DNA of 64,000 nucleotides from Candidatus Nealsonbacteria bacterium (lineage in GTDB: Bacteria > Patescibacteriota > Minisyncoccia > Minisyncoccales > MHMH01). The DNA is taken from NCBI GenBank assembly GCA_016188865.1, contig JACPGX010000001.1, positions 141,197 through 205,196 on the forward strand, in the 5' to 3' direction. The notes beneath the pieces are model-generated. The model did no database searches and was not told the DNA's origin. It saw only the letters and a program-made list of their open reading frames with translations. This document shows, in pieces, positions 13,689 through 56,835 of this stretch. How positions within the stretch are numbered: the stretch's first letter is position 1; each line of letters opens with the position of its first letter. Made by a program: the position numbers and the translations under genes.

Positions 13689-14096
13689 TTATTTTTTGCT
13701 TATTTTTTTAATAATATTGGTTGTTGAATAATCTCCCAAATGCGGGCAAAATCTAATCTCAACATCTTCTGGCAATCCATCTATTTTCCTAACTTCTTCC
13801 GGAGTATATCCCTCTGCTCCTTTAACCACAATATTAGGTTTTATTTTCTTGACTATATTTCCGGCTCTCAACTCATCAAAAATCACCACCTCGTCCACAA
13901 AACGCAAAGATTCTAAAAGTGCCTTTCGGTCTTCTTGGCTGTTAATGGGCCGGCCTTCTCCTTTCAGCATCTTAATAGTTTTGTCGGAATTAATGCCCAC
14001 AATCAGCTTATCGCCTAAAGACTTGGCGAATTTTAATACTTCAAGGTGCCCTCGATGCAAAATGTCAAAACATCCGTTAGTAAAAACAACTACCAT
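13689..14096 (-). CDS. Cytidylyltransferase-fold nucleotidyltransferase, RfaE/HldE domain II-like (heptose-1-phosphate adenylyltransferase candidate)
   Basis: VVFTNGCFDILHRGHLEVLKFAK carries the (H/T)xGH motif. 135 aa is the typical size. Confidence 0.8.
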   Translation of the reverse strand: MVVVFTNGCFDILHRGHLEVLKFAKSLGDKLIVGINSDKTIKMLKGEGRPINSQEDRKALLESLRFVDEVVIFDELRAGNIVKKIKPNIVVKGAEGYTPEEVRKIDGLPEDVEIRFCPHLGDYSTTNIIKKISKK

Positions 14097-14347
14097 TTTT
14101 CAAGTATTTTTTTAGCTTTATCTTTAAACTTCTTGTAGGTATAGTACACTTCATTTTCAACATGCGGCGAAACCAATCTTAAAATTTCAGCGCCCCAAAT
14201 GCGATATTGACCTCCGACCTTGTAAGCTTTAATGATTCCTTTTTTCAGCAATCTCTTGGAAGTGCTGTCCGATATCTTCAAAAAATCCCTAGCTTCGGCA
14301 GTCGTATAAATTTGATTTGGTTTTATTTCTTCTTGATTTATGGGCAT
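14090..14347 (-). CDS. Small excisionase-family helix-turn-helix DNA-binding protein
   Basis: YTTAEARDFLKISDSTSKRLLKKGIIKAYKVGGQYRIWGAEI fits the excisionase/MerR-type HTH pattern. It is the first gene after a consensus promoter and overlaps the next gene by 7 nt. Confidence 0.65.
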   Translation of the reverse strand: MPINQEEIKPNQIYTTAEARDFLKISDSTSKRLLKKGIIKAYKVGGQYRIWGAEILRLVSPHVENEVYYTYKKFKDKAKKILEKW

Positions 14348-14692: not shown

Positions 14693-14781
14693 TCTTGCCG
14701 AGGAAGAAAATACCAATCGAATATCAATTTTCGGTCTCTCAATGGAATACTTTGTCGCTAAAATCGCGATGCAGTTAGACG

Positions 14782-14806
14782 ATGTTAGACGTCCGACGTC
14801 TAACAT
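14782..14806. repeat. 25-bp perfect palindrome (REP-like hairpin), copy 1
   Basis: ATGTTAGACGTC-C-GACGTCTAACAT. It is preceded by a partial direct copy, GTTAGACG, at 14774-14781. Confidence 0.9.
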
Positions 14807-14809
14807 CTA

Positions 14810-15496
14810 TTATTCCAAGAGAAAATCCTTGGTGATTATTTTTTTTGGCTTAAGCTTTGCTGTGCTCGTTTTTATAAATTTATAATAACTATTATTATCA
14901 GAGAATTGATTGAGGATAATGTCTGGTTTTAAAAGTTCACCCCAGCGATTATTTTTGACTAAATCTTGACAGCTTGACCATGGATATTTTTCTTCTTTGT
15001 CTTTCCATGCTTCTAATGCTCTTGGATTACGATGGATATATGCTGAAAGATAGAGAAGTTGTTCATCTGTTTCTACTGGAATGGCCCGGAAAGCGCCCTG
15101 GAAAAGATGACCATGTTTTTTATATTTTGTGTTGAAATATTTTGCGTAGCCAGTTTGTATTCTTTGGAGATAATGTGAGATGCCATTACTGTTATCGGTT
15201 TTTTCTTGGACTAAAAGATGAAAATGATTTGGCATAACGGTAAATATATTCAATTCTACAATTCTTTTATCCGCAATTTGGCGTACAGTCTCCTCGGGTA
15301 TATTGAATTGCGAATACTTAAGAAAATATGAACTTTGACGGCCGATATTATAGAAAGATAACGGAGCTTGATACGCAAAAATAAAAAAGAGAAAACGGCT
15401 GTAATCTCTTTCGTCAATAAATATTGCTGATTCGTCGTTGCTGCGATTACAAATATGGTAATAGTTATTTTGCGCAAATTTAAATTTCCTTATCAT
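14810..15496 (-). CDS. IS200/IS605-family Y1 (HUH) transposase, RAYT-like
   Basis: YYHICNRSNDESAIFIDERDYSRFL, HUH motif in MPNHFHLLV, GHLFQGAFRA, and the Tyr region YIHRNP. The start is moved to the ATG at 15496 (MIRKFKF...). The tracked start at 15535 lies inside the palindrome. Confidence 0.8.
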   Translation of the reverse strand: MIRKFKFAQNNYYHICNRSNDESAIFIDERDYSRFLFFIFAYQAPLSFYNIGRQSSYFLKYSQFNIPEETVRQIADKRIVELNIFTVMPNHFHLLVQEKTDNSNGISHYLQRIQTGYAKYFNTKYKKHGHLFQGAFRAIPVETDEQLLYLSAYIHRNPRALEAWKDKEEKYPWSSCQDLVKNNRWGELLKPDIILNQFSDNNSYYKFIKTSTAKLKPKKIITKDFLLE

Positions 15497-15509
15497 GATT
15501 ATAATATAA

Positions 15510-15536
15510 CATGTTAGACGTCCGACGTCTAACATG
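15510..15536. repeat. 27-bp perfect palindrome (REP-like hairpin), copy 2
   Basis: CATGTTAGACGTC-C-GACGTCTAACATG. Its inner 25 bp are identical to 14782-14806. Confidence 0.9.
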
Positions 15537-15540
15537 TTCT

Positions 15541-33386: not shown

Positions 33387-34480
33387 AATAAAACTTCTAA
33401 TTTTCTAATATTTTCTTTAATATCGTATTTTTGAGCTGTTACTTTGCAATTTTCAGAGAAATAAGCCTGCCCCCTGCCTGCAATTTCCTGCATTTTCCGA
33501 GAAACATCTTCTTTATCCCCTTCAACCAGATATCCATTCAGGCCGTCAATAACGTACTCGTCGGGGCCGGCTACCTTAGTTGAAACCACAGGCAAACCCA
33601 AGGACATGGCCTCAATGCAAGCAATAGCGAATCCTTCAATTTTTGAGGTAAGAACAAAAAATTCAGAAATAAACATATACTCAAAAACGTTTTTCTTGCG
33701 GCCCAGCAAAAATATTTTATCTTCTAAATTTAATTCTTTTACGTACCCGGTCAAAAAATCCAACATCGGTCCCTGGCCCAAAATAATTAATTTATAGCCG
33801 CTGTTTCTTTTAATAAATTCGGCGAAGCCGTCAATCAATAATTTATGATTTTTTTGCGGCCACAATTTTGCCACGTTAATTATGAATTTATCTTCTTTTT
33901 TAAAGCCGAGTTTTTCCTTCAGATCGTCCTTGTTATAATTTTTAATCTTTGCCTGTATATCACTATAATCTATGGCGTCGGGAATAACCGCAAATTTATT
34001 TTGATTGATTTTTTCCTGATCTGCCGTAAACAGTTTAACTGTTTCCGATACGGCGACTATTTTGTAGGTGAAATAAGAAAAAATTTTGTCAGCCATTATT
34101 TGCCATTTCTTTTTTTTAGTATAAGTATTGTGCTCATAAATAATAACTTTATAACCAAAAAATGGCTTCAAGGCCCTTAAAACCGTATTGCTAAAAAACA
34201 AATTAGATAAAATGATATCTGGCCTATACTCCCTCAAAATACGGCAGGTTTCCAGCCAGTTTTTAATGTCGCAAAAACCCTTAAAATTCAATCTATAGTT
34301 TTTAAGATTTCCCGGGAGTAAATCAAAAAAATTATTATCATCTTTGGGCTGGAAAAAACTCAATAAGGCGAGCTCGTATTTGTTTCTATCAAGATTATTA
34401 ATTATGTCGGCTGCCAATTTAGGAGCTCCAGACATATCAAATTCCGTAATGCCTACCAATAATTTAATTTTTGGATTCAT
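33383..34480 (-). CDS. Glycosyltransferase, GT4-like
   Basis: GFAIACIEAMSLGLPVVSTKVAGPDEYV and the typical two-domain length. Confidence 0.75.
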   Translation of the reverse strand: MNPKIKLLVGITEFDMSGAPKLAADIINNLDRNKYELALLSFFQPKDDNNFFDLLPGNLKNYRLNFKGFCDIKNWLETCRILREYRPDIILSNLFFSNTVLRALKPFFGYKVIIYEHNTYTKKKKWQIMADKIFSYFTYKIVAVSETVKLFTADQEKINQNKFAVIPDAIDYSDIQAKIKNYNKDDLKEKLGFKKEDKFIINVAKLWPQKNHKLLIDGFAEFIKRNSGYKLIILGQGPMLDFLTGYVKELNLEDKIFLLGRKKNVFEYMFISEFFVLTSKIEGFAIACIEAMSLGLPVVSTKVAGPDEYVIDGLNGYLVEGDKEDVSRKMQEIAGRGQAYFSENCKVTAQKYDIKENIRKLEVLL

Positions 34481-35489
34481 ATATAGAACAAGTTTTACAC
34501 AAAGGATACCCTCTTTTTTGGGCTATTTTGCGTCTTTCTCTGACGACTGGATCAAACCAAATATCTTTTAATTTCTGCGATAAAACATTGCCGTAAAAAT
34601 ATCGACCGTTTAAGTCATAACAGCACATCGACACTGACCCGTCTGCCAAAACTACCAAATGTGACTTGGCCAAGGGACATTTATCGGGGGGATTTTTTAT
34701 TTTCAGTTTGCCATCTTCTTTTTTGTATCTTACGGACCTGTCGTTTTCTGACTTGTCAGGAAAAAACTTTCTAGATAATTCCTCTCTTTCTTTTTCGGAA
34801 TAAGCATACTCTCCCAGATTAAAAGATCTTATGGAGAGTCTGTCGACTTTTAAATCTTTTGCTATTTTTTTGACATCTTCCAACTCATTTTGATTTAATT
34901 TATTAAAAACAAACTGCAATTCAATAAACGGTCTTCTCAGCTTTAGGGCCTGCTTCTGTCGGCAGAAATAAGTAATATTGCCCAAAACCTGCTCGAAATT
35001 GGCTCCCACTCTAAATTGCTCATAAGATTCCTTGGAGGTTCCATCTAAATCAAGAATGATCCTGTCTAATTTTGAACGAAATAAATCATTCGTCATCTCC
35101 CTATTCAGCAAAACCGCATTAGTGCTTATTTCAGTATATAAGCCATTTTGGTGGGCATACCCTGCCATTCTAGAAATATCGGGGTTGAGCAAGGGCTCAT
35201 TGGTAAAATATAAAAGTACGACCTGTACCGAATCTTTGATGTTATCAATGACTTTTTTGAAATTATCGAAAGACATCAGTTCTCTTTTTCTGCAGATTTT
35301 ACCGGCTGGCGTAGGGCAGGTGGGGCATCGCAAATTACAATAATTCCCCACCTCAATCAGGGCAGCATAGGGATGCCCAAAAAGCCGATATTTAATATTG
35401 GCTTTTATAAAATGCCATGGCTTAGAAAAATTTCTTTCTAATATATTGATTAAAATATGCTTCTTAAAAGCCGGGTAAATGCGATTCAT
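34464..35489 (-). CDS. Radical SAM enzyme with Cys-rich C-terminal (SPASM-like) extension
   Basis: CxxxCxxC in VGNYCNLRCPTCPT. C-terminal cysteines occur in CPLAKSH...SMCCYD...PLCKTCSIY. Confidence 0.7.
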   Translation of the reverse strand: MNRIYPAFKKHILINILERNFSKPWHFIKANIKYRLFGHPYAALIEVGNYCNLRCPTCPTPAGKICRKRELMSFDNFKKVIDNIKDSVQVVLLYFTNEPLLNPDISRMAGYAHQNGLYTEISTNAVLLNREMTNDLFRSKLDRIILDLDGTSKESYEQFRVGANFEQVLGNITYFCRQKQALKLRRPFIELQFVFNKLNQNELEDVKKIAKDLKVDRLSIRSFNLGEYAYSEKEREELSRKFFPDKSENDRSVRYKKEDGKLKIKNPPDKCPLAKSHLVVLADGSVSMCCYDLNGRYFYGNVLSQKLKDIWFDPVVRERRKIAQKRGYPLCKTCSIYESKN

Positions 35490-36529
35490 TTAAATTCAAA
35501 GATTATTTTATCAATAAAATTGTTTAAATTATGGTTTTTGACAACTATTTCTCTTAGGGCGGGGTCTTCCGCGGCTCCCATTAAATTAAGCATCTTTTGA
35601 GCTAAATCTTTCTCATCTCCTTTTTTGAACATGTACTTTTGAGCCAAAATCTCTCGATATGCCTCATTGCAGGTAAGAACCAGGCAACCCGAAGACATGG
35701 CTTCTAAAACCACCTTATCCAGACTGCCGGTTGAGCTGGGATTAACGAAAAGGTCGGCCCAATTAAAGTATTCCGGCATTTCAGAAAAAGAAACTCCGCC
35801 GGCAAACTCAATATGGCTCTCCAAATTATAATTTTTAACCAAATTTTTCAAATCGGCTAAGTATTCTTCCTGAGATTTTAAAAGCGGCCGGCCGAGGATC
35901 CTCGCCTTTAAATTATTAATGTTCTTTTGATTGACTAAGATATTAACTGCCTCAATTAAAGTTTTGTGGTCTTTCACCGGCACAAGTCGGGCGGCGTACA
36001 GAATTTTGATTACGCGAGGTTTGACCTCCTCGGGGGGTCGAACCTCTTTAATTGGTTTAAAAAATTCCGTATCTATCGCCTGTCCGACTACTTCAATTTT
36101 TTTACTTTTTAACCGGCAGCCGGCAGAAGATGAGGTAACAATAACATTCACTAATTTTTCTGCTAATTTCAGCTTCCAGGGAAGAGCGCCGTGGGCATAC
36201 CATAAAACCAGTTTTTTGCCGAAAAGCTTAGCCAAAGGAAAAGCGGCTATAGCGAAAATAGAACCCATGTGGCAATAAACGCCGTCTGATTCCGGCAGGC
36301 ATTTAAATAGAATTTTCTGCATTCTAAAAAACTGCCTTATTTTGGAATAGCCCTTTTCTTTGCCCAAAGAAAAAACCTCAACGTTTTCCGGCAAATGATG
36401 CTCTCCAACCTGCAACCCTACAACAAAAACTTTTTCCAGTTTTTCTGAAAATTTTTCCAAAATCCTATGAAAAAAACTTAAGTTATCATCGTTAAAATCT
36501 ACTCTTTGAACGATAATTAAGAGTTTCAT
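35486..36529 (-). CDS. Glycosyltransferase, GT4-like
   Basis: GSLDKVVLEAMSSGCLVLT and ILYAARLVPVKD. It carries the 31-nt palindrome at 36016-36046 in its interdomain linker. Confidence 0.75.
   Translation of the reverse strand: MKLLIIVQRVDFNDDNLSFFHRILEKFSEKLEKVFVVGLQVGEHHLPENVEVFSLGKEKGYSKIRQFFRMQKILFKCLPESDGVYCHMGSIFAIAAFPLAKLFGKKLVLWYAHGALPWKLKLAEKLVNVIVTSSSAGCRLKSKKIEVVGQAIDTEFFKPIKEVRPPEEVKPRVIKILYAARLVPVKDHKTLIEAVNILVNQKNINNLKARILGRPLLKSQEEYLADLKNLVKNYNLESHIEFAGGVSFSEMPEYFNWADLFVNPSSTGSLDKVVLEAMSSGCLVLTCNEAYREILAQKYMFKKGDEKDLAQKMLNLMGAAEDPALREIVVKNHNLNNFIDKIIFEFK
36016..36046. repeat. 31-nt palindromic element (type B, degenerate copy) inside a GT4 gene
   Basis: GAGGTTTGACCTCC-TCG-GGGGGTCGAACCTC. 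Translated on the minus strand as EVRPPEEVKP. Confidence 0.75.
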
Positions 36530-37647: not shown

Positions 37648-37702
37648 ACTTAGGACTTAGGAACTTAGTTTCTAAGTAAACTTAGAAACTAAGTTCCTAA
37701 GT
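37648..37702. repeat. 48-bp perfect palindrome (22-bp arms, 4-nt loop) preceded by an extra ACTTAGG unit
   Basis: ACTTAGGAACTTAGTTTCTAAG-TAAA-CTTAGAAACTAAGTTCCTAAGT at 37655-37702, with an extra ACTTAGG at 37648-37654. It covers the stop codon of 37697-38689. Confidence 0.9.
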
Positions 37703-38689
37703 TCGTTTTAATATCCGTAACGTTTTCTCCACTAAATTATCCCAGCTAAAATCTTTTAATTTCTCTCTAGAATTGCGGATAAATTTTTCCTGCAAACTCT
37801 TGTCGCTCCACAACTTCAAAATAGCTTGCTTTATCTGTTCTTTATTCTTGTATTCTACCAAAAAACCATTAAAATTATCTTCAATTAATTCCGGATTGCC
37901 CCCTTCACTGCTGGCTATCACCGGCACTCCAAAACTCATTGCTTCCAATATGACATGAGACAGACCCTCATAGCCTGAATTTAAAACAAACATATCGGCA
38001 GCCTTAAAGTAAAAAGGCATTTCTTCATGGGGAACTTTTTTATCCTCTCCGACAATTACTAATTTGAAATTTGGATTTTCTTTAAGCAAGTCTGGCATAA
38101 TGGCCCTTAAGTCGTCGAAGCCCTTCCATGGCACAGGACGTCCAACTGATAAAATAATATTTCCGTCAATGCCAATATTTTTTTTGGCATCCTCCTTAGA
38201 AATATCCGGTCGAGAACCGTTCTCGACCGCATTATAAATAACCTCTATTTTGTTCTCCGATACGCGCCAAGAAGCCACCATTTTTTTAACATACCTGCTG
38301 GGAACAATAATTTTATCAGCTCCTCTGGCAACATAAGCCTGAATACTTTTTAAATAATTCTTCTTCTGCTCCCAGGCTGCATCCCCGACAACCTTTAAAA
38401 CAAATTTTTTTCTTAATAATTTTGCCGCCCAGAAAGCCGGCAATCCTGCGCTAGTCGGATTTTGAGCATAAATAACATCAGCCTCTTTTGCCAGCCGAAG
38501 CAAACCCAAGAAATATAAAAAATGCTTTAAACCTTTAGGGTATTTTTTCAATCTTCCTGAATAACTAATAACTGGCTGATTCAATTCTTTGGCCAGCCTT
38601 TTAACATATGTCGCTGGCCCGCCAATGTCAGGCGGATATATGCCGGTGGCTAAGACAATTTTCATATATTTTAAATACCTCTTGGGCAA
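37697..38689 (-). CDS. Glycosyltransferase, GT4-like
   Basis: MKIVLATGIYPPDIGGPATYV and EGLSHVILEAMSFGVPVIASSEGGNPELI. The likely true start is the ATG at 38665. Confidence 0.8.
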   Translation of the reverse strand: MPKRYLKYMKIVLATGIYPPDIGGPATYVKRLAKELNQPVISYSGRLKKYPKGLKHFLYFLGLLRLAKEADVIYAQNPTSAGLPAFWAAKLLRKKFVLKVVGDAAWEQKKNYLKSIQAYVARGADKIIVPSRYVKKMVASWRVSENKIEVIYNAVENGSRPDISKEDAKKNIGIDGNIILSVGRPVPWKGFDDLRAIMPDLLKENPNFKLVIVGEDKKVPHEEMPFYFKAADMFVLNSGYEGLSHVILEAMSFGVPVIASSEGGNPELIEDNFNGFLVEYKNKEQIKQAILKLWSDKSLQEKFIRNSREKLKDFSWDNLVEKTLRILKRT

Positions 38690-39740
38690 TATTCTGCCAA
38701 TCGTATCTCGTTAATCCTGCAATAGCAAAATTAACGAGGCGCTCTCTTAATTCTGGATTATTATAAATTCTTAATATGGCTTTGGCAATCTCCTCTGGAT
38801 TTCCCGGCGTCACCAAAAGACCATTTTTCTCATTTTCGATAATATCTAAAATTCCGCCAACCTTGCTTGCAATAACCGGGACCCTAGCTGCTATGGCTTC
38901 CAAGATAGCTATGCCGAAGCCCTCTTTCAGGGAAGGCAAAACGAAACAGTCCGCCATAGCCAGATATTCTGGAATGCCTTCTGGAGGAATCGGTCCCAAA
39001 AATTTTACTTTCTTCACTAAGCCGAGCTCTCTGGTCAAATTTTCTAAATTTTTTCTTTCAGAACCATCGCCGATAATGAATAATTGGAGATCCGACCCCG
39101 CCAAGGCGAGATCGGATCTTGTAAAAGCCCTAATCAAATATTCTATCCCCTTTACTTTTTCCAACCTCGCCACCGTCATCACCACAAAACCATCTTTTTG
39201 TTGTTTCTTTAAATTCTCAAATCTTTTTAAATCAACGCCGTTAGGTATTACCTCAATATTTGAGCATCCGATTTCTTTAAAATATTCTTTGATGGCGGAA
39301 CTTGCAGCAATGCAGACTTTAGCGTTTCTATAAACTATTTTTTTTAAGAAATTATTCCCCTCCAACCTCTGAACGGTCACAATGTAGGGTATGTTGACAA
39401 TTTTTGAAATATAATATCCTATGCAGGCCCCCAGAAATCCTTGGCAGTGTAAAAGATTAATTTTCTGTAATAATATTAGAAAAAAAGAGCGCGAAAATAT
39501 GAATGGCATAGCTGTCAAAATGTGAAAGAACGAAGAATAGGAAAGGTCTTTCAGGGCAAATAAAGATGTCCGAAAAATTTTAACTCCATTTTTAACTTCG
39601 TGTTTGGCGCTATCCCCAACCCTAGCTGTAACAACAAAAATTTCGGCTTTATTCGCAAGCTTTTCGGCAATATTTTGCGTCCAGGTCTCTAATCCTCCGA
39701 TCACGGGATAATAATGTAAAACCGGCATTAAAATTCGCAT
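38628..39740 (-). CDS. Glycosyltransferase, GT4-like
   Basis: MRILMPVLHYYPVIGGLETW and EGFGIAILEAIAARVPVIASKVGGILDII. Confidence 0.8.
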   Translation of the reverse strand: MRILMPVLHYYPVIGGLETWTQNIAEKLANKAEIFVVTARVGDSAKHEVKNGVKIFRTSLFALKDLSYSSFFHILTAMPFIFSRSFFLILLQKINLLHCQGFLGACIGYYISKIVNIPYIVTVQRLEGNNFLKKIVYRNAKVCIAASSAIKEYFKEIGCSNIEVIPNGVDLKRFENLKKQQKDGFVVMTVARLEKVKGIEYLIRAFTRSDLALAGSDLQLFIIGDGSERKNLENLTRELGLVKKVKFLGPIPPEGIPEYLAMADCFVLPSLKEGFGIAILEAIAARVPVIASKVGGILDIIENEKNGLLVTPGNPEEIAKAILRIYNNPELRERLVNFAIAGLTRYDWQNIAQEVFKIYENCLSHRHISA

Positions 39741-40828
39741 AGTACATTTTTTATTGATTCCAACATCGTTCTAATATCTTTTTCCGCGTAGTAATTCTGC
39801 AAGGGGAAATTGATGATTCTCTTGGCGACTTCAAAGGTGTTGGGGAATTCTTCCCGGCTTAAAACAATAGGCGTGTGCCAAATGCGGGTGCAGAAAACTC
39901 GGTACCTTCTCAATCCCGCCACAATTTCATCTCTTTTATTTTCCAAATTTTTGGGGACTAAAGCGGAAAGATAACAAAAAACGTTGTTTTCGTGCTCTTG
40001 AACTTCAAAACCTAAATTTTGAAGCTCTTGCTGAAAAAACTTAGCAAGCTTTATCCTGTTTTGCATAGATTTTTCAAAATCTTCCAGAGAATAATAGAAA
40101 AGGGCCAAAGATAACTTATTGAGGCCTGCGGGCTCCGGTAATTTTTCCTTTCTTAGCATCTTCGGAGCGATATCGTTGCCAAACTTTTTAAAAATAAAGG
40201 CGAAAAAAGGAAGGCAATTCAGTAAAGAAATGAAATCCCTGAAATTAAAATTGGTTTTTGGCAGAGAGATTTGCCAATCCTTGGGACAAACTAACAATCC
40301 GCCTCTTAATGCCGGGAATTGCTTGTAAAGACTGAAAAATGCAATATCACTTTTCGGCTTAACCCCGAAAGCATGAGCGCAATCTTCAATAATCGCAATA
40401 TCGGAGGTCCGACCTCCCGACAAATATGACGGGAGGTCGGACCTCAATCCATCAACATCGAACGGGAGACCGTAGGTGTGGCACACTAAAATCGCCTTTG
40501 TCCGGGGAGTAATCTTCCTAAAGATTTCTTCTCTTTTAATATGAAAAGTTTTCAAATCAATATCCAAAAAAATCGGTTTTATATTATATTTCTCTAAAAT
40601 TGGCTGGAATATATCGCAAATATAAGCCGGCATCATTATTTCTGAATTTTGAAGATTCAACTTTCCAATAATAATTTTGAAAGCAGACCGGCCCATGTCG
40701 GTGAAAATAAGCTGTTTACTCGGAAAATATGACTCAAGTTTTTGAGCTAAATTAATCTTCTTGAAATTATTAAGTTTTATTTGCGGGTGGACGAAAAACA
40801 TACTAGTCTTACTCTGGCTAGGCACCAT
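39728..40828 (-). CDS. Divergent DegT-family PLP-dependent aminotransferase carrying an in-frame palindromic element
   Basis: HTYGLPFDVDG, IIEDCAHAFG and FFSLYKQFPALRGG (Lys retained). The residues LRSDLPSYLSGGRTSD are encoded by the repeat at 40403-40445. Confidence 0.65.
   Translation of the reverse strand: MVPSQSKTSMFFVHPQIKLNNFKKINLAQKLESYFPSKQLIFTDMGRSAFKIIIGKLNLQNSEIMMPAYICDIFQPILEKYNIKPIFLDIDLKTFHIKREEIFRKITPRTKAILVCHTYGLPFDVDGLRSDLPSYLSGGRTSDIAIIEDCAHAFGVKPKSDIAFFSLYKQFPALRGGLLVCPKDWQISLPKTNFNFRDFISLLNCLPFFAFIFKKFGNDIAPKMLRKEKLPEPAGLNKLSLALFYYSLEDFEKSMQNRIKLAKFFQQELQNLGFEVQEHENNVFCYLSALVPKNLENKRDEIVAGLRRYRVFCTRIWHTPIVLSREEFPNTFEVAKRIINFPLQNYYAEKDIRTMLESIKNVLCEF
40403..40445. repeat. 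42/43-nt nested double-hairpin element (type A), copy 1, inside a DegT-family gene
   Basis: GGAGGTCCGACCTCC-CGACAAATATGAC-GGGAGGTCGGACCTC. Its reverse complement matches 46914-46955 at 40 of 42 positions. Confidence 0.9.
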
Positions 40829-41475
40829 CCAAACGGCCTGCCAAAAATATTTTCAAATGATAAAAAAAATTTAGGAGATAAATTCAAATTTAATGGAGGA
40901 TAAGTATTAAAAATCTTCTGTTTCCTGAAAACGAAGCCTTCTTTTTTAAACTCTCGTTTGATGCCGGAGAGTGAAAGATAGTAAGGGGAGTTTCTGTTGA
41001 TAAGCCTTTTCAGGCTGCCAAAAATCTTATAAAAAGACAGGCAATTTATAAAGTCGCAGATTAAAGTGCCCCCTGGCTTTAAAACTCTGACAATCCCTCT
41101 TTGAACTCCCGGATAGGTAGCGGCCGAAACGTAGCCGAAGCTGGTCACAACATCAAAATAATTATCTGGATATTTAAGATTATAAACATCTCCCTCTTCT
41201 ATATTAATTCTGTTTTCGAGGCCGGCTTTTCTAACTTTTTCCCTGGCGGTCTCAATCGCTTTTTTTGAAATATCAAACCCGATTATTGCAAAATCAGTGT
41301 TCTTGGCCAAAAGAATATCAATTTCGCCTAAGCCGCAGCCGATATCCAGCAGTCTGCCGCTTTTTTTCTCGCCCAAAAGCGCCAAAGTATTTTCTAAGGT
41401 TAAGGTAATTGTAGCCTGCCGCGCTGAATTTAATCTGTAATTTTTTTGACTATATTGCTCCCACTTTTCGCTCAT
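40777..41475 (-). CDS. Class I SAM-dependent methyltransferase
   Basis: Motif I in RLLDIGCGLGEIDILLA; LKPGGTLI lies downstream. Confidence 0.75.
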   Translation of the reverse strand: MSEKWEQYSQKNYRLNSARQATITLTLENTLALLGEKKSGRLLDIGCGLGEIDILLAKNTDFAIIGFDISKKAIETAREKVRKAGLENRINIEEGDVYNLKYPDNYFDVVTSFGYVSAATYPGVQRGIVRVLKPGGTLICDFINCLSFYKIFGSLKRLINRNSPYYLSLSGIKREFKKEGFVFRKQKIFNTYPPLNLNLSPKFFLSFENIFGRPFGWCLARVRLVCFSSTRK

Positions 41476-42458
41476 AATTTATATTTTAATAAATACGGGC
41501 TTAATTTTTTAATTAAAAATGGCGGTAAAAGGCCGAAAATATTTCTGAGGGTTTCGAAGTCCAGCTTCCCTGGAAGGCCGGACTTCATCGTTCCTCCGCA
41601 ATTCGTTAATTCAAAAATCGGATATTCCCTGCCTCCCCAGCCCTGTTTGAAAATTTGCAAAGGAGAACCAATTCTTGTCCCTCCAAAATCGAAAATTTTA
41701 TTATCCTGCAAACTCTTTTGAATTTGTTCCCATAGTATTAAATAATTGGCTCCCAAATTTTTATACTTTTCATCGATGGCATTTTGAAAATAATGGACGA
41801 ATTTTTCATAAAAGAGAAAGGCGCTTCCGGCTATAACAAGGTTATTCTTTTTGGCTAAAATAATCTCCGATTCATTGGAGTTAAAAAAATAATCAAAAAA
41901 AGAAAATGGATATGCCGGAATTTTGTGTCTTTTAGCGCTTTTAAGATATAAATTATAAAAATTTTTAAGGTCTTTCTGGCTTTGACATTTCTCAACTTGA
42001 ATATTATTGGCCTTGGCTTTTTCTATTTCGTGGCGCGTAGTTTTCCTTAAATCAATATCCTCCAAAAAATAACTTACCCTGCCCGACTGGTCGAGAACGC
42101 TTCTCGCCCCATCGAGAGCGAGAAACGTTCTCGCTAGTTGGGGGTGGAAGTTGATTCTGACGCGATTCTTGAATTCAGACAATAAATCCTGCTTAAATTT
42201 TTCGGCATCAATATTTTCCAGCAAAGGCAATGGCCCGCCGTATTCGCAAAATGGATGAGAAATCAATTTATCCCCCACTCTGGCCATGCTTAATAATGCC
42301 TTATCATCGTACATATACCTTTCAAATTTCAACCATTTAAATTGCCTTTCAAGGAATTCCTCCCATTCCATATAATGAAAAAAAGTCTTGAATAAGACTT
42401 TTCCCAACAAATCCTGCCATTCATTTTTGTTTGTAATTTTGGTAAATTTGTTCTCCAT
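41472..42458 (-). CDS. FemAB/GNAT-like acyl- or aminoacyl-transferase family protein
   Basis: The HPFCEYGGPL, LYLKSAKRHKIPAYPFSFF and AGSAFLFYEKFVHYFQNA pattern resembles FemAB-type (Acetyltransf_6-like) proteins. It contains two in-frame palindromes. Confidence 0.45.
   Translation of the reverse strand: MENKFTKITNKNEWQDLLGKVLFKTFFHYMEWEEFLERQFKWLKFERYMYDDKALLSMARVGDKLISHPFCEYGGPLPLLENIDAEKFKQDLLSEFKNRVRINFHPQLARTFLALDGARSVLDQSGRVSYFLEDIDLRKTTRHEIEKAKANNIQVEKCQSQKDLKNFYNLYLKSAKRHKIPAYPFSFFDYFFNSNESEIILAKKNNLVIAGSAFLFYEKFVHYFQNAIDEKYKNLGANYLILWEQIQKSLQDNKIFDFGGTRIGSPLQIFKQGWGGREYPIFELTNCGGTMKSGLPGKLDFETLRNIFGLLPPFLIKKLSPYLLKYKL
41557..41585. repeat. 29-nt imperfect palindrome (type C) inside the FemAB-like gene
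   Basis: AAGTCCAGCTTCCCTGGAAGGCCGGACTT. Translated on the minus strand as KSGLPGKLDF. Confidence 0.55.
42092..42133. repeat. 42-nt nested palindrome (16-nt arms, 10-nt spacer) inside the FemAB-like gene
   Basis: CGAGAACGCTTCTCGC-CCCATCGAGA-GCGAGAAACGTTCTCG, with one arm mismatch. Each arm is itself a CGAGAA..TTCTCG hairpin. Translated as ARTFLALDGARSVL. Confidence 0.8.
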
Positions 42459-46570: not shown

Positions 46571-47713
46571 ATGGAAACTGTCAATACCGCAAAACGCAAA
46601 ATACTCTTTCTGGTCACCCAATCTGAAATGGGCGGCGCGCAGAGGTATATTTATGAAGTATCAAAAATACTGTCAGAAAGACACGAGATTTTGGTTGCGG
46701 CCGGAGAGGGAGATGGAGAGTTCTTCCAGAAACTAAAAAATACACCGGTTGAACCGGTGTATCTGAAACATCTGCAAAGAACTCCTGAACCGCATTCAAT
46801 TATCATGGCTATCGTTGAAATAATAAAACTTCTCAAGGCAGAAAGGCCGGATGTTTTGTTTTTGTGTTCTACTACTGCTGGGCTACTCGGCTCCATTGCC
46901 GCCCGAATTTACAGAGGTCCGACCTCTCGTCAGATTTGTCGGGAGGTCGGACCTCGCGTAATCTATCGTATTGGCGGCTGGGCCTTCAACGACCCTCGCC
47001 CATTCTGGAAAAATTGGCTTATCCTGCTGGCGGAGAAATTAACCGCCCGATTTAAAGATATAATCGTAGTGAACTCCGAATATGACCTGCGGATTGCGTT
47101 AGAAAAACGAATCGTTTCTCCGGAAAAAATAGTGAAAATCTATAATGGGCTTGATCGAAATTCTTTGAATTTCTTGCCCAAAGACGAAGCCCGTGGTCTG
47201 TTGACATCCGATGTCAACAGACGAATGATTGGGTGCGTGGCGAATTTTTATAAGACTAAAGGGCTAAAGTGCCTTATTGACGCTTTCGATTTTCTGATGT
47301 CCGGCTTCCCGAAGAAGTCGGACATCAAGCTATTCGTCATCGGCGATGGGAAACTGCGGTCGGAACTTGAAGCTCAAATAAAAAAACTCGACTTAGAAGA
47401 CAGGGTGATTTTAGCCGGCAGAATGCCCGACGCCTATAAATATCTAAAGGCATTTGATGTCTTCGTGCTTCCCTCTCTTAAGGAGGGTTTTCCATGGGTC
47501 ATACTGGAAGCTGCGGTAGCTGACGTTCCGATTGTCGCCACAAAAGTAGGAGCCATACCAGAAATATTGCCGGAAGAATTTTTAGTAAAACCAGGCGATG
47601 CCCAAGCTTTGGCAAAAAAAATTGGCTGGATGCTTGAACATCCAGCCGTACCAAAACTCAAGCAGAACTTCTCTCTGCAAAAAATGGCAGAGGAAACCGA
47701 GAGGCTACTCTAA
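46571..47713 (+). CDS. Glycosyltransferase, GT4-like (only plus-strand gene) carrying in-frame palindromic elements
   Basis: SEMGGAQRYIYEV and EGFPWVILEAAVADVPIVATKVGAIPEIL. RGPTSRQICREVGPRV is encoded by the repeat at 46913-46955. Confidence 0.8.
   Translation: METVNTAKRKILFLVTQSEMGGAQRYIYEVSKILSERHEILVAAGEGDGEFFQKLKNTPVEPVYLKHLQRTPEPHSIIMAIVEIIKLLKAERPDVLFLCSTTAGLLGSIAARIYRGPTSRQICREVGPRVIYRIGGWAFNDPRPFWKNWLILLAEKLTARFKDIIVVNSEYDLRIALEKRIVSPEKIVKIYNGLDRNSLNFLPKDEARGLLTSDVNRRMIGCVANFYKTKGLKCLIDAFDFLMSGFPKKSDIKLFVIGDGKLRSELEAQIKKLDLEDRVILAGRMPDAYKYLKAFDVFVLPSLKEGFPWVILEAAVADVPIVATKVGAIPEILPEEFLVKPGDAQALAKKIGWMLEHPAVPKLKQNFSLQKMAEETERLL
46913..46955. repeat. 42/43-nt nested double-hairpin element (type A), copy 2, inside a GT4 gene
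   Basis: AGAGGTCCGACCTCT-CGTCAGATTTGTC-GGGAGGTCGGACCTC. Confidence 0.9.
47297..47325. repeat. 29-nt imperfect palindrome (type C) inside the plus-strand GT4 gene
   Basis: ATGTCCGGCTTC-CCGAA-GAAGTCGGACAT. Translated as MSGFPKKSDI. Contains GTCGGAC. Confidence 0.55.
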
Positions 47714-49414: not shown

Positions 49415-50452
49415 TTAAAAACGCGATTCAAGCCAATTGGCAAAAGATTCGAATGCACTGAAAAGACTGGCTTGGGCTGCGGAAATTTGCTGCTGCAAAA
49501 GCTGAATTAATTGCGCAAGCAAATTAATGATTTTTTGCTGGAGTTCTTGAATTAAAGCCCGGAGTTCTTCTGGAGAAAGAGGACCACCGGTGCCGGTGGG
49601 AGCGGGTTCTTCTTCCTTTATTTGTTGAGGTTCGACCTCCTCGGGAGGTCGAACCTCTTCGATTTCGGGCAGTGGCAGAGTTTTAACGTCCGGGAAAACC
49701 GTTAAAGCAGAAACTAAATTTTGCCCTCGGTCGTTAAAAGCTTTTATCTGCCTTCCAGAATATTCCGTATCAGGCCTTAAGCCTGTTTCGTCAAGATAAG
49801 AAATGTTTGCTCCGCCCGAAGCTACCGTATTCAGATTCTCATCTAAAATTTTAAAGCCGAACTCATTATTGGATAAATCCGTAAAATGCCACCTGATTGT
49901 TGAAGTGGATATTGCCTCGCCTGACTTTGCCAAGGGAGAAACAGGAGCAGAAGGAGTGTCGCTTCCTGCCAGAATCATTCTTTCAAGGCCAATAATTTTT
50001 TTGTCAGTGGGACCCTTAAGACTGACGTCAGGAAAAACTGCTGAATTTATTTGTATTTCCGGTTTAATTGTTTTTCCAGTATAGGTAGTAGAAGCGATGT
50101 CTACGGTAATAAAAATCCTTTGCTTTGTAAAAGTTCCATTGAGAGTTGTGTCAAAAAAAGGAGAAAATGATTTCCTCAATTTTTCAGATTCATCGCCGTC
50201 CCAACCCGGCGAAACGCCGTCTTCATAAATTGAAAGCTGGGAAATATCATATTGCTGAACAGTTCCGGTGTTATCAATTTTTATTGAAGTTAAACCGGCG
50301 CCGGGAAGAGTCAAATCTAAAATCAAGAGGTTAGTAGTGCCAGCCGGCACAGCGTAAGTTGACTGCGGGTTGACTATAAAATCATTGGCTGTTGAAGCAA
50401 AAGAAAAACCAGGCGCTAAAACAAAAACTAAAACTAAAATAATTTTCCTCAT
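49415..50452 (-). CDS. Secreted protein with FN3-like domain and C-terminal coiled coil
   Basis: Signal peptide MRKIILVLVFVLAPGFSFAS. STIRWHFTDLSNNEFGFKILDENLN...TEYSGRQIKAFNDRG is FN3-like. The C-terminus is LRALIQELQQKIINLLAQLIQLLQQQI. Confidence 0.6.
   Translation of the reverse strand: MRKIILVLVFVLAPGFSFASTANDFIVNPQSTYAVPAGTTNLLILDLTLPGAGLTSIKIDNTGTVQQYDISQLSIYEDGVSPGWDGDESEKLRKSFSPFFDTTLNGTFTKQRIFITVDIASTTYTGKTIKPEIQINSAVFPDVSLKGPTDKKIIGLERMILAGSDTPSAPVSPLAKSGEAISTSTIRWHFTDLSNNEFGFKILDENLNTVASGGANISYLDETGLRPDTEYSGRQIKAFNDRGQNLVSALTVFPDVKTLPLPEIEEVRPPEEVEPQQIKEEEPAPTGTGGPLSPEELRALIQELQQKIINLLAQLIQLLQQQISAAQASLFSAFESFANWLESRF
49584..49599. repeat. 16-nt palindrome inside the 345-aa secreted protein gene
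   Basis: CCACCGG-TG-CCGGTGG, translated as PTGTGG. It lies 27 nt from the type B element. Confidence 0.6.
49627..49657. repeat. 31-nt perfect palindromic element (type B) inside the 345-aa secreted protein gene
   Basis: GAGGTTCGACCTCC-TCG-GGAGGTCGAACCTC (14-bp arms). Translated as EVRPPEEVEP. Confidence 0.85.
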
Positions 50453-56280: not shown

Positions 56281-56835
56281 TTAATGTGTCCCATTTTTAA
56301 CATAATATACTCCCCTGCCGGCGCCATTCCTTACCATTATGCCGGTTTGACAAAGCTTATCTAAATCTCGGAGAACGGTTCTCCGATTAATTTCTGGGAA
56401 AAGCCCAACCACATCGCCTATTCTAAATCGGCCGTTTCCGTTAATGTATGCAATAATTTTCTCCTGTCGCCCCGCCTTTGCCAAGGCTTCGGTAGGCAGA
56501 TAGTTATCCACAGTTTTTCCAGAGTCGTGTTGCCCAACATCCGATGTTTGACATAGCTGACTCAACTTATTATATTCTCTCCTTAGGACCTCAAAATTCC
56601 TCGAATCCACCCAATTATTCTGCTTGGCTAAATCAAAAAGCCCAAAAATCTCTGTAATCTTACGAGAACACATCTCGTCCTGACGAGAAATGTTCTCGTA
56701 AGATTCCACCATTATTCTATCAGCTAATTCTCTTATTTTAGAAGCCAAATCCTCTCCAACGGGAAAAAGAGCGGTCACTTTATAGACCGCTAAAGTCAAT
56801 TTTAGAAGATGTTCTTTGTCCAGATTTTGCCGCAT
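56281..56835 (-). CDS. Putative transcriptional regulator: N-terminal four-helix-bundle domain plus C-terminal winged HTH
   Basis: HLLKLTLAVYKVTALFP...IRELADRI is four-helix-bundle-like. INRRTVLRDLDKLCQTGIMVRNGAGRGVYY is a DeoR-like wHTH. Confidence 0.5.
   Translation of the reverse strand: MRQNLDKEHLLKLTLAVYKVTALFPVGEDLASKIRELADRIMVESYENISRQDEMCSRKITEIFGLFDLAKQNNWVDSRNFEVLRREYNKLSQLCQTSDVGQHDSGKTVDNYLPTEALAKAGRQEKIIAYINGNGRFRIGDVVGLFPEINRRTVLRDLDKLCQTGIMVRNGAGRGVYYVKNGTH

Follow-up and report, generated by a model that had tools for sequence, protein, structure and literature searches.

The 64,000 nucleotide (nt) stretch of Candidatus Nealsonbacteria DNA analysed here, hereafter the window, contains a 31-nt palindrome at positions 36016-36046. 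This lies within a gene for a GT4-type glycosyltransferase. A close relative occurs in the gene for a secreted-looking protein, at 49627-49657. Why should unrelated genes share a hairpin-forming sequence, read in frame? The palindrome could specify a peptide useful to both proteins, provide a nucleic acid structure for the host or be mobile DNA. We conclude that the sequences probably belong to a family of short, non-autonomous mobile elements. These are of the type formed by repetitive extragenic palindromes (REPs), REP doublets forming hairpins (REPINs) and REP-associated tyrosine transposases (RAYTs). As with Rickettsia palindromic elements (RPEs), the copies are mostly intragenic. Coordinates are listed in Table 1.

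The palindrome at 36016-36046 reads GAGGTTTGACCTCC-TCG-GGGGGTCGAACCTC and has two arm mismatches. That at 49627-49657, GAGGTTCGACCTCC-TCG-GGAGGTCGAACCTC, is perfect with arms of 14 nt. The original prediction, made from the sequence of the window, held that the former is a slightly degenerate copy of the latter. This is borne out; the two differ at 2 of 31 positions and each difference unpairs a stem position in the 36016 copy. The RNA fold of this copy (-17.2 kcal/mol, z = -3.9) is weaker than that of the perfect copy (-27.5 kcal/mol, z = -6.7). DNA folding parameters rank the copies in the same order. Given the two uncompensated stem mutations, and the loss of folding energy, the 36016 copy is decaying. 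Both proposed reading frames were confirmed on the minus strand. They encode EVRPPEEVKP in the GT4 linker and EVRPPEEVEP in the unrelated secreted protein.

Two longer palindromes in the window (42 nt; 40404-40445 and 46914-46955) are designated type A and the 31-nt palindromes type B. The type A arm, GAGGTCCGACCTCC, is 1-2 bases different from the type B arms, having CC/GG at the arm centre instead of TC/GA. The two type A copies are in unrelated genes and 40 of their 42 positions are identical once one is reverse-complemented. A covariance model derived from 31-nt copies alone detected both 42-nt copies with E ~1e-9. For comparison, E-values were 8e-11 for the 36016 copy and 2e-13 for the 49627 copy. 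Types A and B also have a 13-mer arm unit in common. Hence, as had been suspected, they are one family. The same model added two decayed members (47293-47329 and 41553-41589). Chance cannot account for the doublets. With up to 2 mismatches, the 14-mer arm matches the window 12 times, compared with 0.59 expected. The doublet pattern GAGGTYYGACCTC-N(4-16)-GRGGTCRRACCTC identifies exactly four loci, compared with 0.00 in 100 shuffles. In all, there are 4 intact and 2 decayed copies per 64 kb, every one inside an open reading frame (ORF). Since 92% of the window is coding, intragenic location is not itself enrichment and we make no such claim.

We scanned 185,579 species genomes for the doublet, defined as GAGGT-YYG-ACCTC, a spacer of 4-16 nt and an inverted copy. 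Unit order and most arm bases are fixed by this pattern. At least 111 loci were found. Among the matches listed, carriers are almost all Patescibacteria, or Candidate Phyla Radiation (CPR), and Omnitrophota. One closed chromosome is included and a few carriers have other, unverified, labels. The CPR carriers listed include Nealsonbacteria, Saccharibacteria, Paceibacterota, Giovannoni-, Zambryski-, Kaiser-, Moran-, Falkow- and Chisholmbacteria. Up to 7 copies were found per genome among the matches listed and the core element is 30-42 nt long. In 845 kb of sequence there are 116 inverted doublets (spacer up to 16 nt) but only 6 true solo units. Subfamilies of the GAGGT, GACGT, AAGGC and GCTTAACT types can be distinguished. 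No match to the doublet pattern was found in 2.9 million viral contigs and BLAST searches of plasmids and phages with the 31-mer gave no hits. On these grounds, carriage by phages or plasmids was rejected. At gathering score, Rfam 15 had 0 matches in the whole window.

High-GC (55-74%) contigs from soil and sediment carry many copies of a variant doublet, GAAGCCCGGCTTC-N-GAAGCCGGGCTTC (metagenome loci L120-L239). Often, the flanks are A-rich and T-rich, like a bidirectional terminator, and sometimes two copies are separated by ~50 nt. Contigs of low GC account for about ten copies. Hence, the nested-palindrome architecture extends beyond CPR.

Palindromes can also arise without mobile DNA. Local template-switching, by quasi-palindrome correction or inverted duplication, could be responsible, as could errors of assembly. 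The window has 39 hairpins with stems of at least 11 bp, compared with 7-13 in shuffles, and several are unique sequences with a 1-nt centre. In some genomes, the palindrome also runs into copy-specific flanks. However, the same 13-mer recurs in unrelated genes, in the closed chromosome, and in over 60 assemblies produced by different projects with different assemblers. The copies also keep the reading frame. The many independent assemblies and the intact frames together exclude an assembly artefact. Template switching could help to keep arms paired but cannot create a shared 13-mer. We consider these origins extremely unlikely.

The original prediction left undecided whether structure or peptide is conserved. 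Arm centres are complementary in 112 of 119 copies (TC/GA in 62, CC/GG in 37, CT/AG in 10 and TT/AA in 3). Simple arithmetic, using marginal frequencies, gives an expectation of ~49. Hence, changes in the stem are compensatory. Consistent with this, in 35 distinct 31-nt copies pair 9:29 is UA in 26, CG in 9 and never unpaired. The loop-closing pair is CG in 27 and GC in 5. The covariation score was 0.173, compared with 0.096 in shuffles, and none of 500 shuffles reached the former value. In orthologues, 22-26 of 26 arm positions (85-100%) are identical, compared with 38-58% of four-fold third positions outside the element. Conservation of synonymous sites within the arms thus far exceeds background, favouring an element that is palindromic at the nucleic acid level.

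Use of reading frames is also informative. Open frames of at least 150 codons contain 87 of the 119 copies, with frames 0, 1 and 2 used 27, 29 and 31 times, respectively. The three frames encode unrelated peptides (EVRP.., RSDL.. and GPTS/GSTS..). These observations bear on the proposal that EVRPPEEV is a linker motif, selected at the protein level, with incidental DNA palindromy. The sequence EVRPPxEV(E/G/K)P does recur, in frame, in linkers of the GT4 and the secreted protein. It is also Pro/Glu-rich, like the neighbouring linker sequence. Conversely, no single peptide is shared by the 119 copies and type A copies have the same arms but encode other peptides. Furthermore, paired changes couple synonymous to non-synonymous sites. 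In frame 0, the left-arm change from C to T is synonymous (GTC/GTT) while the paired G to A change in the right arm turns Gly into Glu. Selection on the peptide cannot explain this. Equal frame usage, and conservation at synonymous sites, exclude the peptide motif, to which we give almost no credence. We conclude that constraint acts on DNA or RNA structure, not peptide. This follows from the use of three frames, the compensatory arm changes, arm identity exceeding that of four-fold sites, and spacers that are genome-specific (see below).

The host proteins are unrelated housekeeping proteins. Searches against solved structures confirmed TsaD, RNase HI, GatB and DegT. Others were identified from conserved motifs, including IleRS, LigA (DNA ligase), UvrA, UvrC, DnaG, PheT, MnmA, RlmN and alanine racemase. 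Alignment to solved structures places the element in loops of DegT, TsaD, RNase HI and GatB. The net gain, relative to solved homologues, is 17 amino acids (aa) for TsaD, 7 aa for DegT, 6 aa for RNase HI and 1 aa for GatB. As these values are mostly below the element length, the element often replaces part of the native loop. In the flagged GT4, which has a GT4-type Glycos_transf_1 C-terminal domain according to Pfam, the element encodes residues E162-P171. The AlphaFold model has a mean predicted local distance difference test (pLDDT) score of 93.1. Residues 161-170 (mean 53) are the sole low-confidence block. They are modelled as coil, immediately preceding strand 174-179, with which the C-terminal Rossmann half begins. 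The model thus supports an interdomain-linker position. No Pfam family matched the second type B host (ORF 49415-50452), which has a signal-peptide-like N-terminus. Some sources name its distant homologues fibronectin type III proteins.

Some host loops hold tandem or nested partial copies. Examples are GSTSGGGRTSNISGGGRTS in locus L006 (4038-4100) and RFDLGHRGRTSDSFGYRGPTSD in L105 (388-470). Pieces of ACCTC-N-GAGGT and a solo arm were seen in L243, which corresponds to the P0129 linker. Such arrangements suggest repeated insertion into existing copies.

We compared linkers across orthologues of the two type B hosts. In GT4 homologues without the element, linkers are 1-6 residues shorter and of unrelated sequence. 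Element-type linkers occur in ~8 of 47 GT4 homologues, scattered over no fewer than 5 separate parts of a neighbour-joining tree. The element is missing from the closest relatives of the window GT4 (P0002-P0010; 74-80% identity). At the DNA level, the site differs among GT4 orthologues. Some have an intact palindrome (TTC/GAA or TCC/GGA), one has a copy whose right arm is decayed, one retains a solo arm and one has a perfect GAAGCCCGGCTTC..GAAGCCGGGCTTC variant (P0020). The linker is a hot spot for insertion among GT4 orthologues and the linker of the secreted protein is another. For the secreted-protein family, ~9 of 40 orthologues carry the element in a hypervariable linker. In one, the arms are identical to those of the window copy at 26 of 26 positions but the loop is different. 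Two others have decaying copies and one has fragments with a solo arm. The original prediction would be undermined if EVRPPEEV-type linkers were common among homologues and encoded by non-palindromic codons. Such linkers do recur, but every intact one among the GT4 and secreted-protein orthologues has palindromic codons. The P0020 variant differs by four coordinated changes per arm and was considered as a case of compensation in situ. We dropped it as a test because the variant proved to be common in its own right, chiefly on contigs of high GC, where it often resembles a terminator. With this variant, evolution in situ cannot be separated from insertion of another subfamily.

Conserved arms in orthologues could reflect selection on the arms or repeated, recent acquisition. 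The host might keep the hairpin for a function in DNA or RNA, with purifying selection acting on it at orthologous linkers. It could make ribosomes or polymerase pause at a domain boundary, serve RNase III or mRNA stability, or be a REPIN that has been domesticated. Arm identity of 85-100% between orthologues with 55-73% protein identity, while four-fold sites are near saturation, fits such a role. So do the intact palindromes at the same linker in several clades, for two unrelated proteins, and the very stable folds of intact copies (z = -6.7 to -7.7; range over all folded copies -3.9 to -7.7). Moreover, both type B copies of the window are at domain boundaries. Against this, the closest GT4 homologues do without the element and many orthologous copies, like the flagged copy, are decayed or reduced to a solo arm. 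The sites are arbitrary loops of unrelated proteins, with the spacer in both orientations relative to the gene, and the window has no Rfam match. Genome-specific subfamilies imply recent copying, and re-insertion into tolerant linkers would also explain the conserved arms. Given the evidence for active copying within genomes, we favour re-insertion or conversion into tolerant linkers. A host function seems unlikely.

Copying within genomes is evident from near-identical pairs, which make up 28% of pairs within a genome and 2.6% of pairs between genomes. One Omnitrophota chromosome has four identical 31-mers. Another has six 39-mers with the non-palindromic spacer GACAATCGGGGCC. Similarly, a Saccharibacteria metagenome-assembled genome (MAG) has three copies with spacer AAAGGATGCCCA. 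The type A spacer of the window recurs in a third gene of a related Nealsonbacteria MAG. Near-identity within genomes, together with genome-specific spacers, is the hallmark of a replicating element.

No target-site duplication was detected in 119 copies; flanking direct repeats are at chance levels, with 2 nt in 16 and 3 nt in 2. Similarly, no conserved target was found, only a bias to T-rich flanks. In the IS200/IS605-RAYT group, Y1/HUH transposases use single-stranded DNA as substrate, recognising hairpins and leaving no target-site duplication. Hence, the flanks are consistent with Y1 transposition. We rejected a miniature inverted-repeat transposable element, derived from a DDE transposon, since target-site duplication is absent and a scan of 30 window ORFs revealed no DDE transposase. 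The palindrome frequently extends into its flanks, which in some genomes form subfamily-specific outer stems or are specific to the copy. The 8-mer GCGTAATC, which encodes R-V-I, comes immediately after the element in three genes that are not related: both window GT4 genes (36047-36054 and 46956-46963) and an apparent IleRS gene. Outside the window, the 8-mer was noted in loci L083, L089 and L114. In one subfamily, an outer stem, GATTACGC/GCGTAATC, is probably part of the mobile unit. Because of such stems, and the shared flank, the true ends must be wider than the core. An intrinsic terminator was also rejected. On the gene strand, the hairpin is followed by GCGTAATC, the broken T-run (TTTAATTGGT) is antisense only and the site is mid-gene. 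Resemblances of the 13-mer to a T-loop, an anti-Shine-Dalgarno sequence and restriction sites were set aside as coincidences.

A RAYT-like gene is present in the window (14810-15535). The ORF matches PF01797 (Y1_Tnp, IS200-like) with 39.7 bits, against a cut-off of 23. Public annotation gives a 228-aa "transposase", with a start near 15496 by arithmetic. Across 26 homologues, neither the HUH histidines nor the Tyr of YIHxNP varies. A profile built from these 26 sequences matches the solved structure of ISDra2 TnpA (E=5e-4). With the single sequence, a PDB search gave nothing; matches came from the profile search alone. Hairpins lie at both ends of the gene and have TGTTAGACGTC-C-GACGTCTAACA in common, that at 15506-15540 being just upstream of the annotated start. 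The flanking core, GACGTC-C-GACGTC, is the arm GAGGTC-C-GACCTC with pair 3:11 swapped from G:C to C:G. We saw no tnpB gene beside the transposase gene. The window transposase is a candidate mobiliser of the family.

The association is not confined to the window. Decisively, among loci selected solely for the palindrome, tblastn found five homologous transposase genes in four loci. In L079 (Saccharibacteria), the same 38-nt GAGGT-type doublet is on both sides of the gene, 10 nt upstream and 4-6 nt downstream. In L049, the doublet begins directly after the stop codon. Related nested palindromes mark both gene ends in L059. A different palindrome does so in L017, where a GAGGT doublet is 144 nt away. 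Hence, the element is physically associated with RAYT-like genes. The transposase family has at least 1,356 homologues at E <=1e-10 and is large in CPR. Where named, members are called only "transposase"; they are probably RAYTs.

Close to the window transposase gene is an 85-aa ORF (14090-14347, minus strand) that reads, by eye, like a helix-turn-helix, excisionase-like protein. The ~430 nt between the two were judged non-coding, with weak overlapping ORFs on both strands, including one of 162 aa with a GTG start. A partial direct repeat, GTTAGACG, adjoins the 3' hairpin of the transposase gene.

Spread might also occur without transposition. The element could be a DNA uptake or recombination signal, akin to DNA uptake sequences (DUS) or uptake signal sequences (USS), moved by transformation and short-patch recombination. 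In Pasteurellaceae, USS are found inside genes in all frames. In our data, distant orthologues share both the element and short flanks (ATTAAA.., ..GCGTAATC), while it is missing from close relatives. In addition, the element often replaces native sequence, as at GatB, where net gain is 1 aa. However, DUS and USS have a density of roughly one per kilobase, compared with ~6 per 64 kb here. Units are nearly all in inverted doublets and identical copies occur in unrelated genes of one genome. The direct physical association with Y1 transposase genes also argues against an uptake signal, which we judge very unlikely. Overall, decay of copies, arbitrary host sites, the doublet rule and the association with transposase genes fit less well with a host function or an uptake signal than with a mobile element.

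The favoured model is as follows. The basic unit is the 13-mer, itself a mini-palindrome (GAGGT-YYG-ACCTC). Two inverted units around a 4-16 nt spacer would form the mobile doublet, a G+C-rich hairpin when single-stranded. A RAYT-like HUH/Y1 (IS200-type) transposase would copy the doublet in trans. The data show that the copies form one family, that the hairpin covaries, that copies have spread within and between genomes, that they lie in frame inside genes and that they are physically associated with RAYT-like genes. We infer both the role of this enzyme in catalysing movement and the single-strand mechanism. In genomes that are ~92% coding, most insertions would land in genes. Being stop-free in most frames, and encoding loop-friendly residues (E, V, R, P, G, S, T and D), the element may often be tolerated. 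Copies would persist only if in frame, stop-free and in a tolerant loop or linker, often replacing part of the native loop. Subsequently, they may drift, as the flagged copy has done with its two uncompensated mutations, or be overwritten by new insertions.

Such elements would have much in common with REPs and REPINs. Both are short (20-40 bp for REP/REPIN), G+C-rich palindromic repeats, with many dispersed copies and an inverted-pair hairpin form. As with REP/REPIN-RAYT systems, populations are genome-specific and target-site duplication is absent. The REPIN is defined as two inverted REP units around a spacer, forming one hairpin, and is the replicating form (PMC3337134). RAYT genes are flanked by repeats (PMC3733652), as are the Y1/HUH genes of L079, with GAGGT doublets on both sides, and L049, with a doublet on one. 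Intragenic REP dimers are described in uvrA, ligase and tRNA synthetase genes of some species, as a minority case (PMC3733652). There are also differences. The unit here is 13 nt, with a 5-bp stem and 3-nt centre, while REPs have stems of 8-9 bp or longer with a tag and tail. REP units have a conserved GTAG or CGTC tetranucleotide at one end, and CCTC is listed as a tag variant (PMC3733652). The common unit here has CCTC in the corresponding place, but within the stem. Unlike REPs, which are extragenic, copies here are mostly intragenic, as random insertion at 92% coding density would give. For the hosts, Patescibacteria and Omnitrophota, our literature searches gave no report of REP-RAYT systems. 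Finally, the transposase is longer than known RAYTs (~228 aa), divergent and below the NCBI RAYT cut-off.

RPEs are the closest parallel for life inside genes. They are palindromic repeats, in frame, in unrelated housekeeping genes of a reduced genome and add peptides at the protein surface (PMC10969869). RPE-4 and RPE-6 have been classed as CGTC-type REPs (PMC3733652). Similarly, insertions here are in frame at fold-compatible sites: the DegT, TsaD, RNase HI and GatB loops and the low-pLDDT GT4 linker. However, the RPEs first described are ~150 bp long with a conserved, family-specific peptide (PMC10969869), while the elements here are 30-42 nt and use three frames. Sequence is unrelated and host range different.

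The IS200/IS605 elements share the transposase superfamily, PF01797, and hairpin DNA signals. Unlike these, the dispersed copies are gene-free and the window transposase has no visible tnpB partner. Furthermore, IS200/IS605 elements have distinct left and right subterminal hairpins, whereas the window transposase has the same symmetric palindrome at both ends. Yeast mitochondrial GC clusters and "byp" elements are short G+C-rich hairpins that spread in compact, A+T-rich genomes, sometimes in coding regions. We know of no Y1 transposase for organellar GC-cluster elements. Also, byp elements are skipped in translation while, here, the frame is continuous through the element. Comparable short G+C-rich palindromes are found in Volvox organelles (PMC2670323).

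In the searchable literature, we found no description of this family in Patescibacteria/CPR or Omnitrophota, and six 13-mers were in no relevant paper. The family differs from the closest known systems in its short nested unit, lack of a GTAG tag, mostly intragenic life, host phyla and longer, divergent transposase.

Several points weigh against a mobile element of this kind. No family copy has a GTAG tag, and CGTC occurs only in the transposase-flanking variant and type A spacers. The best NCBIfam match of the window transposase is the REP-associated tyrosine transposase but, at 45-54 bits, is below the curated cut-off of 80. Similarly, the profile that detected ISDra2 TnpA gave a weak match to the solved E. 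coli TnpAREP (E=0.12). Hairpins of the window transposase are of the GACGTC variant, seen only at the transposase, and not of the dispersed GAGGTC type. Hence, the enzyme for types A and B may lie outside the window. The loci were chosen using a pattern that fixes most arm bases and unit orientation, so covariation is measurable at few positions. No clean empty site was found; the linker of even the closest GT4 homologues (80% identity) is shorter and of unrelated sequence, making insertion boundaries undefinable. Of five net gains (+1, +6, +6, +7 and +17 aa), four are shorter than the element. Hence, the gains do not establish simple insertion. Most core lengths (30-42 nt) are not divisible by three, the true ends being undefined. 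Lastly, intact copies recur at one linker in several separate clades, which calls for repeated insertion, recombination or selection.

Work on REP/REPIN-RAYT systems has largely concerned Proteobacteria and extragenic repeats. The same logic would apply here in CPR/Patescibacteria and Omnitrophota. With almost no intergenic space in these genomes, the repeats live inside genes. This would account for odd G+C-rich, Pro/Gly/Arg-rich insertions in CPR proteins. It is also a warning to annotators and structure predictors that such loops may be selfish DNA, not functional motifs. The family offers a natural system for asking what allows hairpin elements, and their enzyme, to endure in minimal genomes. 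Its compensated subfamilies (GAGGT, GACGT and AAGGC) are suited to testing structure-based recognition by the enzyme. A bolder version, for which we see an outside chance, is a partly domesticated REPIN-RAYT system. In this case, the intragenic copies would be more than passengers. Domain-boundary hairpins would be maintained over long periods by selection, or RAYT-dependent re-copying, and have a role at the nucleic acid level (pausing, recombination or uptake signal), while time and again remodelling loops and linkers of essential proteins in two phyla of ultra-small bacteria.

Table 1. Palindromic elements, host genes and the RAYT-like locus in the window.
Feature	Position	Strand	Details
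Type B doublet, flagged	36016..36046		two unpaired stem positions; in frame, minus-strand reading, GT4 linker
Type B doublet, perfect	49627..49657		in frame, EVRPPEEVEP; hypervariable linker of signal-peptide protein
Type A doublet	40404..40445		in frame, peptide RSDLPSYLSGGRTS; DegT-family aminotransferase gene
Type A doublet	46914..46955		in frame, peptide RGPTSRQICREVGP; second GT4 gene
Decayed member GATGTCCGGCTTC-CCGAA-GAAGTCGGACATC	47293..47329		within second GT4 (46571-47713); covariance model E=1e-5
Decayed member GAAGTCCAGCTTC..GAAGGCCGGACTTC	41553..41589		within FemAB-like ORF 41472-42458; covariance model E=6e-4
Host GT4-type glycosyltransferase	35486-36529	-	347 aa; copy 36016, frame 0, EVRPPEEVKP; element at C-terminal Rossmann domain boundary
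Host signal-peptide-like protein	49415-50452	-	345 aa; copy 49627, frame 0, EVRPPEEVEP
Host DegT-family aminotransferase	39728-40828	-	copy 40404, frame 1, peptide RSDLPSYLSGGRTS
Host second GT4	46571-47713	+	copy 46914, frame 2, peptide RGPTSRQICREVGP
RAYT-like Y1/HUH transposase	14810..15535	-	HUH motif PNHFHLL; Tyr motif YLSAYIHRNP
Hairpin GATGTTAGACGTC-c-GACGTCTAACATC	14781..14807		2 nt past transposase stop codon; core 13-mer GACGTCCGACGTC
Hairpin ATAACATGTTAGACGTC-c-GACGTCTAACATGTTCT	15506..15540		same hairpin, 5' end of transposase gene

Most of the window, at positions 1-46000, carries genes for glycosyltransferases, sugar modification, radical-SAM proteins and related functions in one long run on the same strand. 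Between 46 and 54 kb, G+C content climbs from ~0.38 to 0.44-0.46. This region encodes two secreted-looking proteins, one having PATPATP repeats and a PG_binding_1 domain, and includes a 1,425-aa ORF.

Other palindromes were evident in the hairpin survey. Those of unique sequence, with a 1-nt centre, are at 46738-46764, 47194-47224, 35380-35406, 34025-34047 and 2171-2193; inverted duplication or footprints are possible origins. The second GT4 gene holds five palindromes. A perfect palindrome at 37653-37704, with 25-nt arms and a 2-nt centre (GGACTTAGGAACTTAGTTTCTAAGT aa ACTTAGAAACTAAGTTCCTAAGTTC), occupies a short spacer between two glycosyltransferase genes and overlaps the stop codon of ORF 37697-38689. 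ACTTAG/CTAAGT motifs also border a GAAGCC-type doublet in metagenome loci L132 and L209.

The window also contains a second nested-palindrome family with the unit CGAGAA-NNN-TTCTCG. Five units were found, compared with 0.16 expected, at 38211-38225, 42092-42133 and 56653-56708. The architecture is that of the GAGGT family but the sequence is different. The unit at 38211-38225 is solo, with an extended stem, inside the GT4 ORF 37697-38689. Inverted doublets are inside the FemAB-like ORF 41472-42458 and a helix-turn-helix ORF at 56281-56835.

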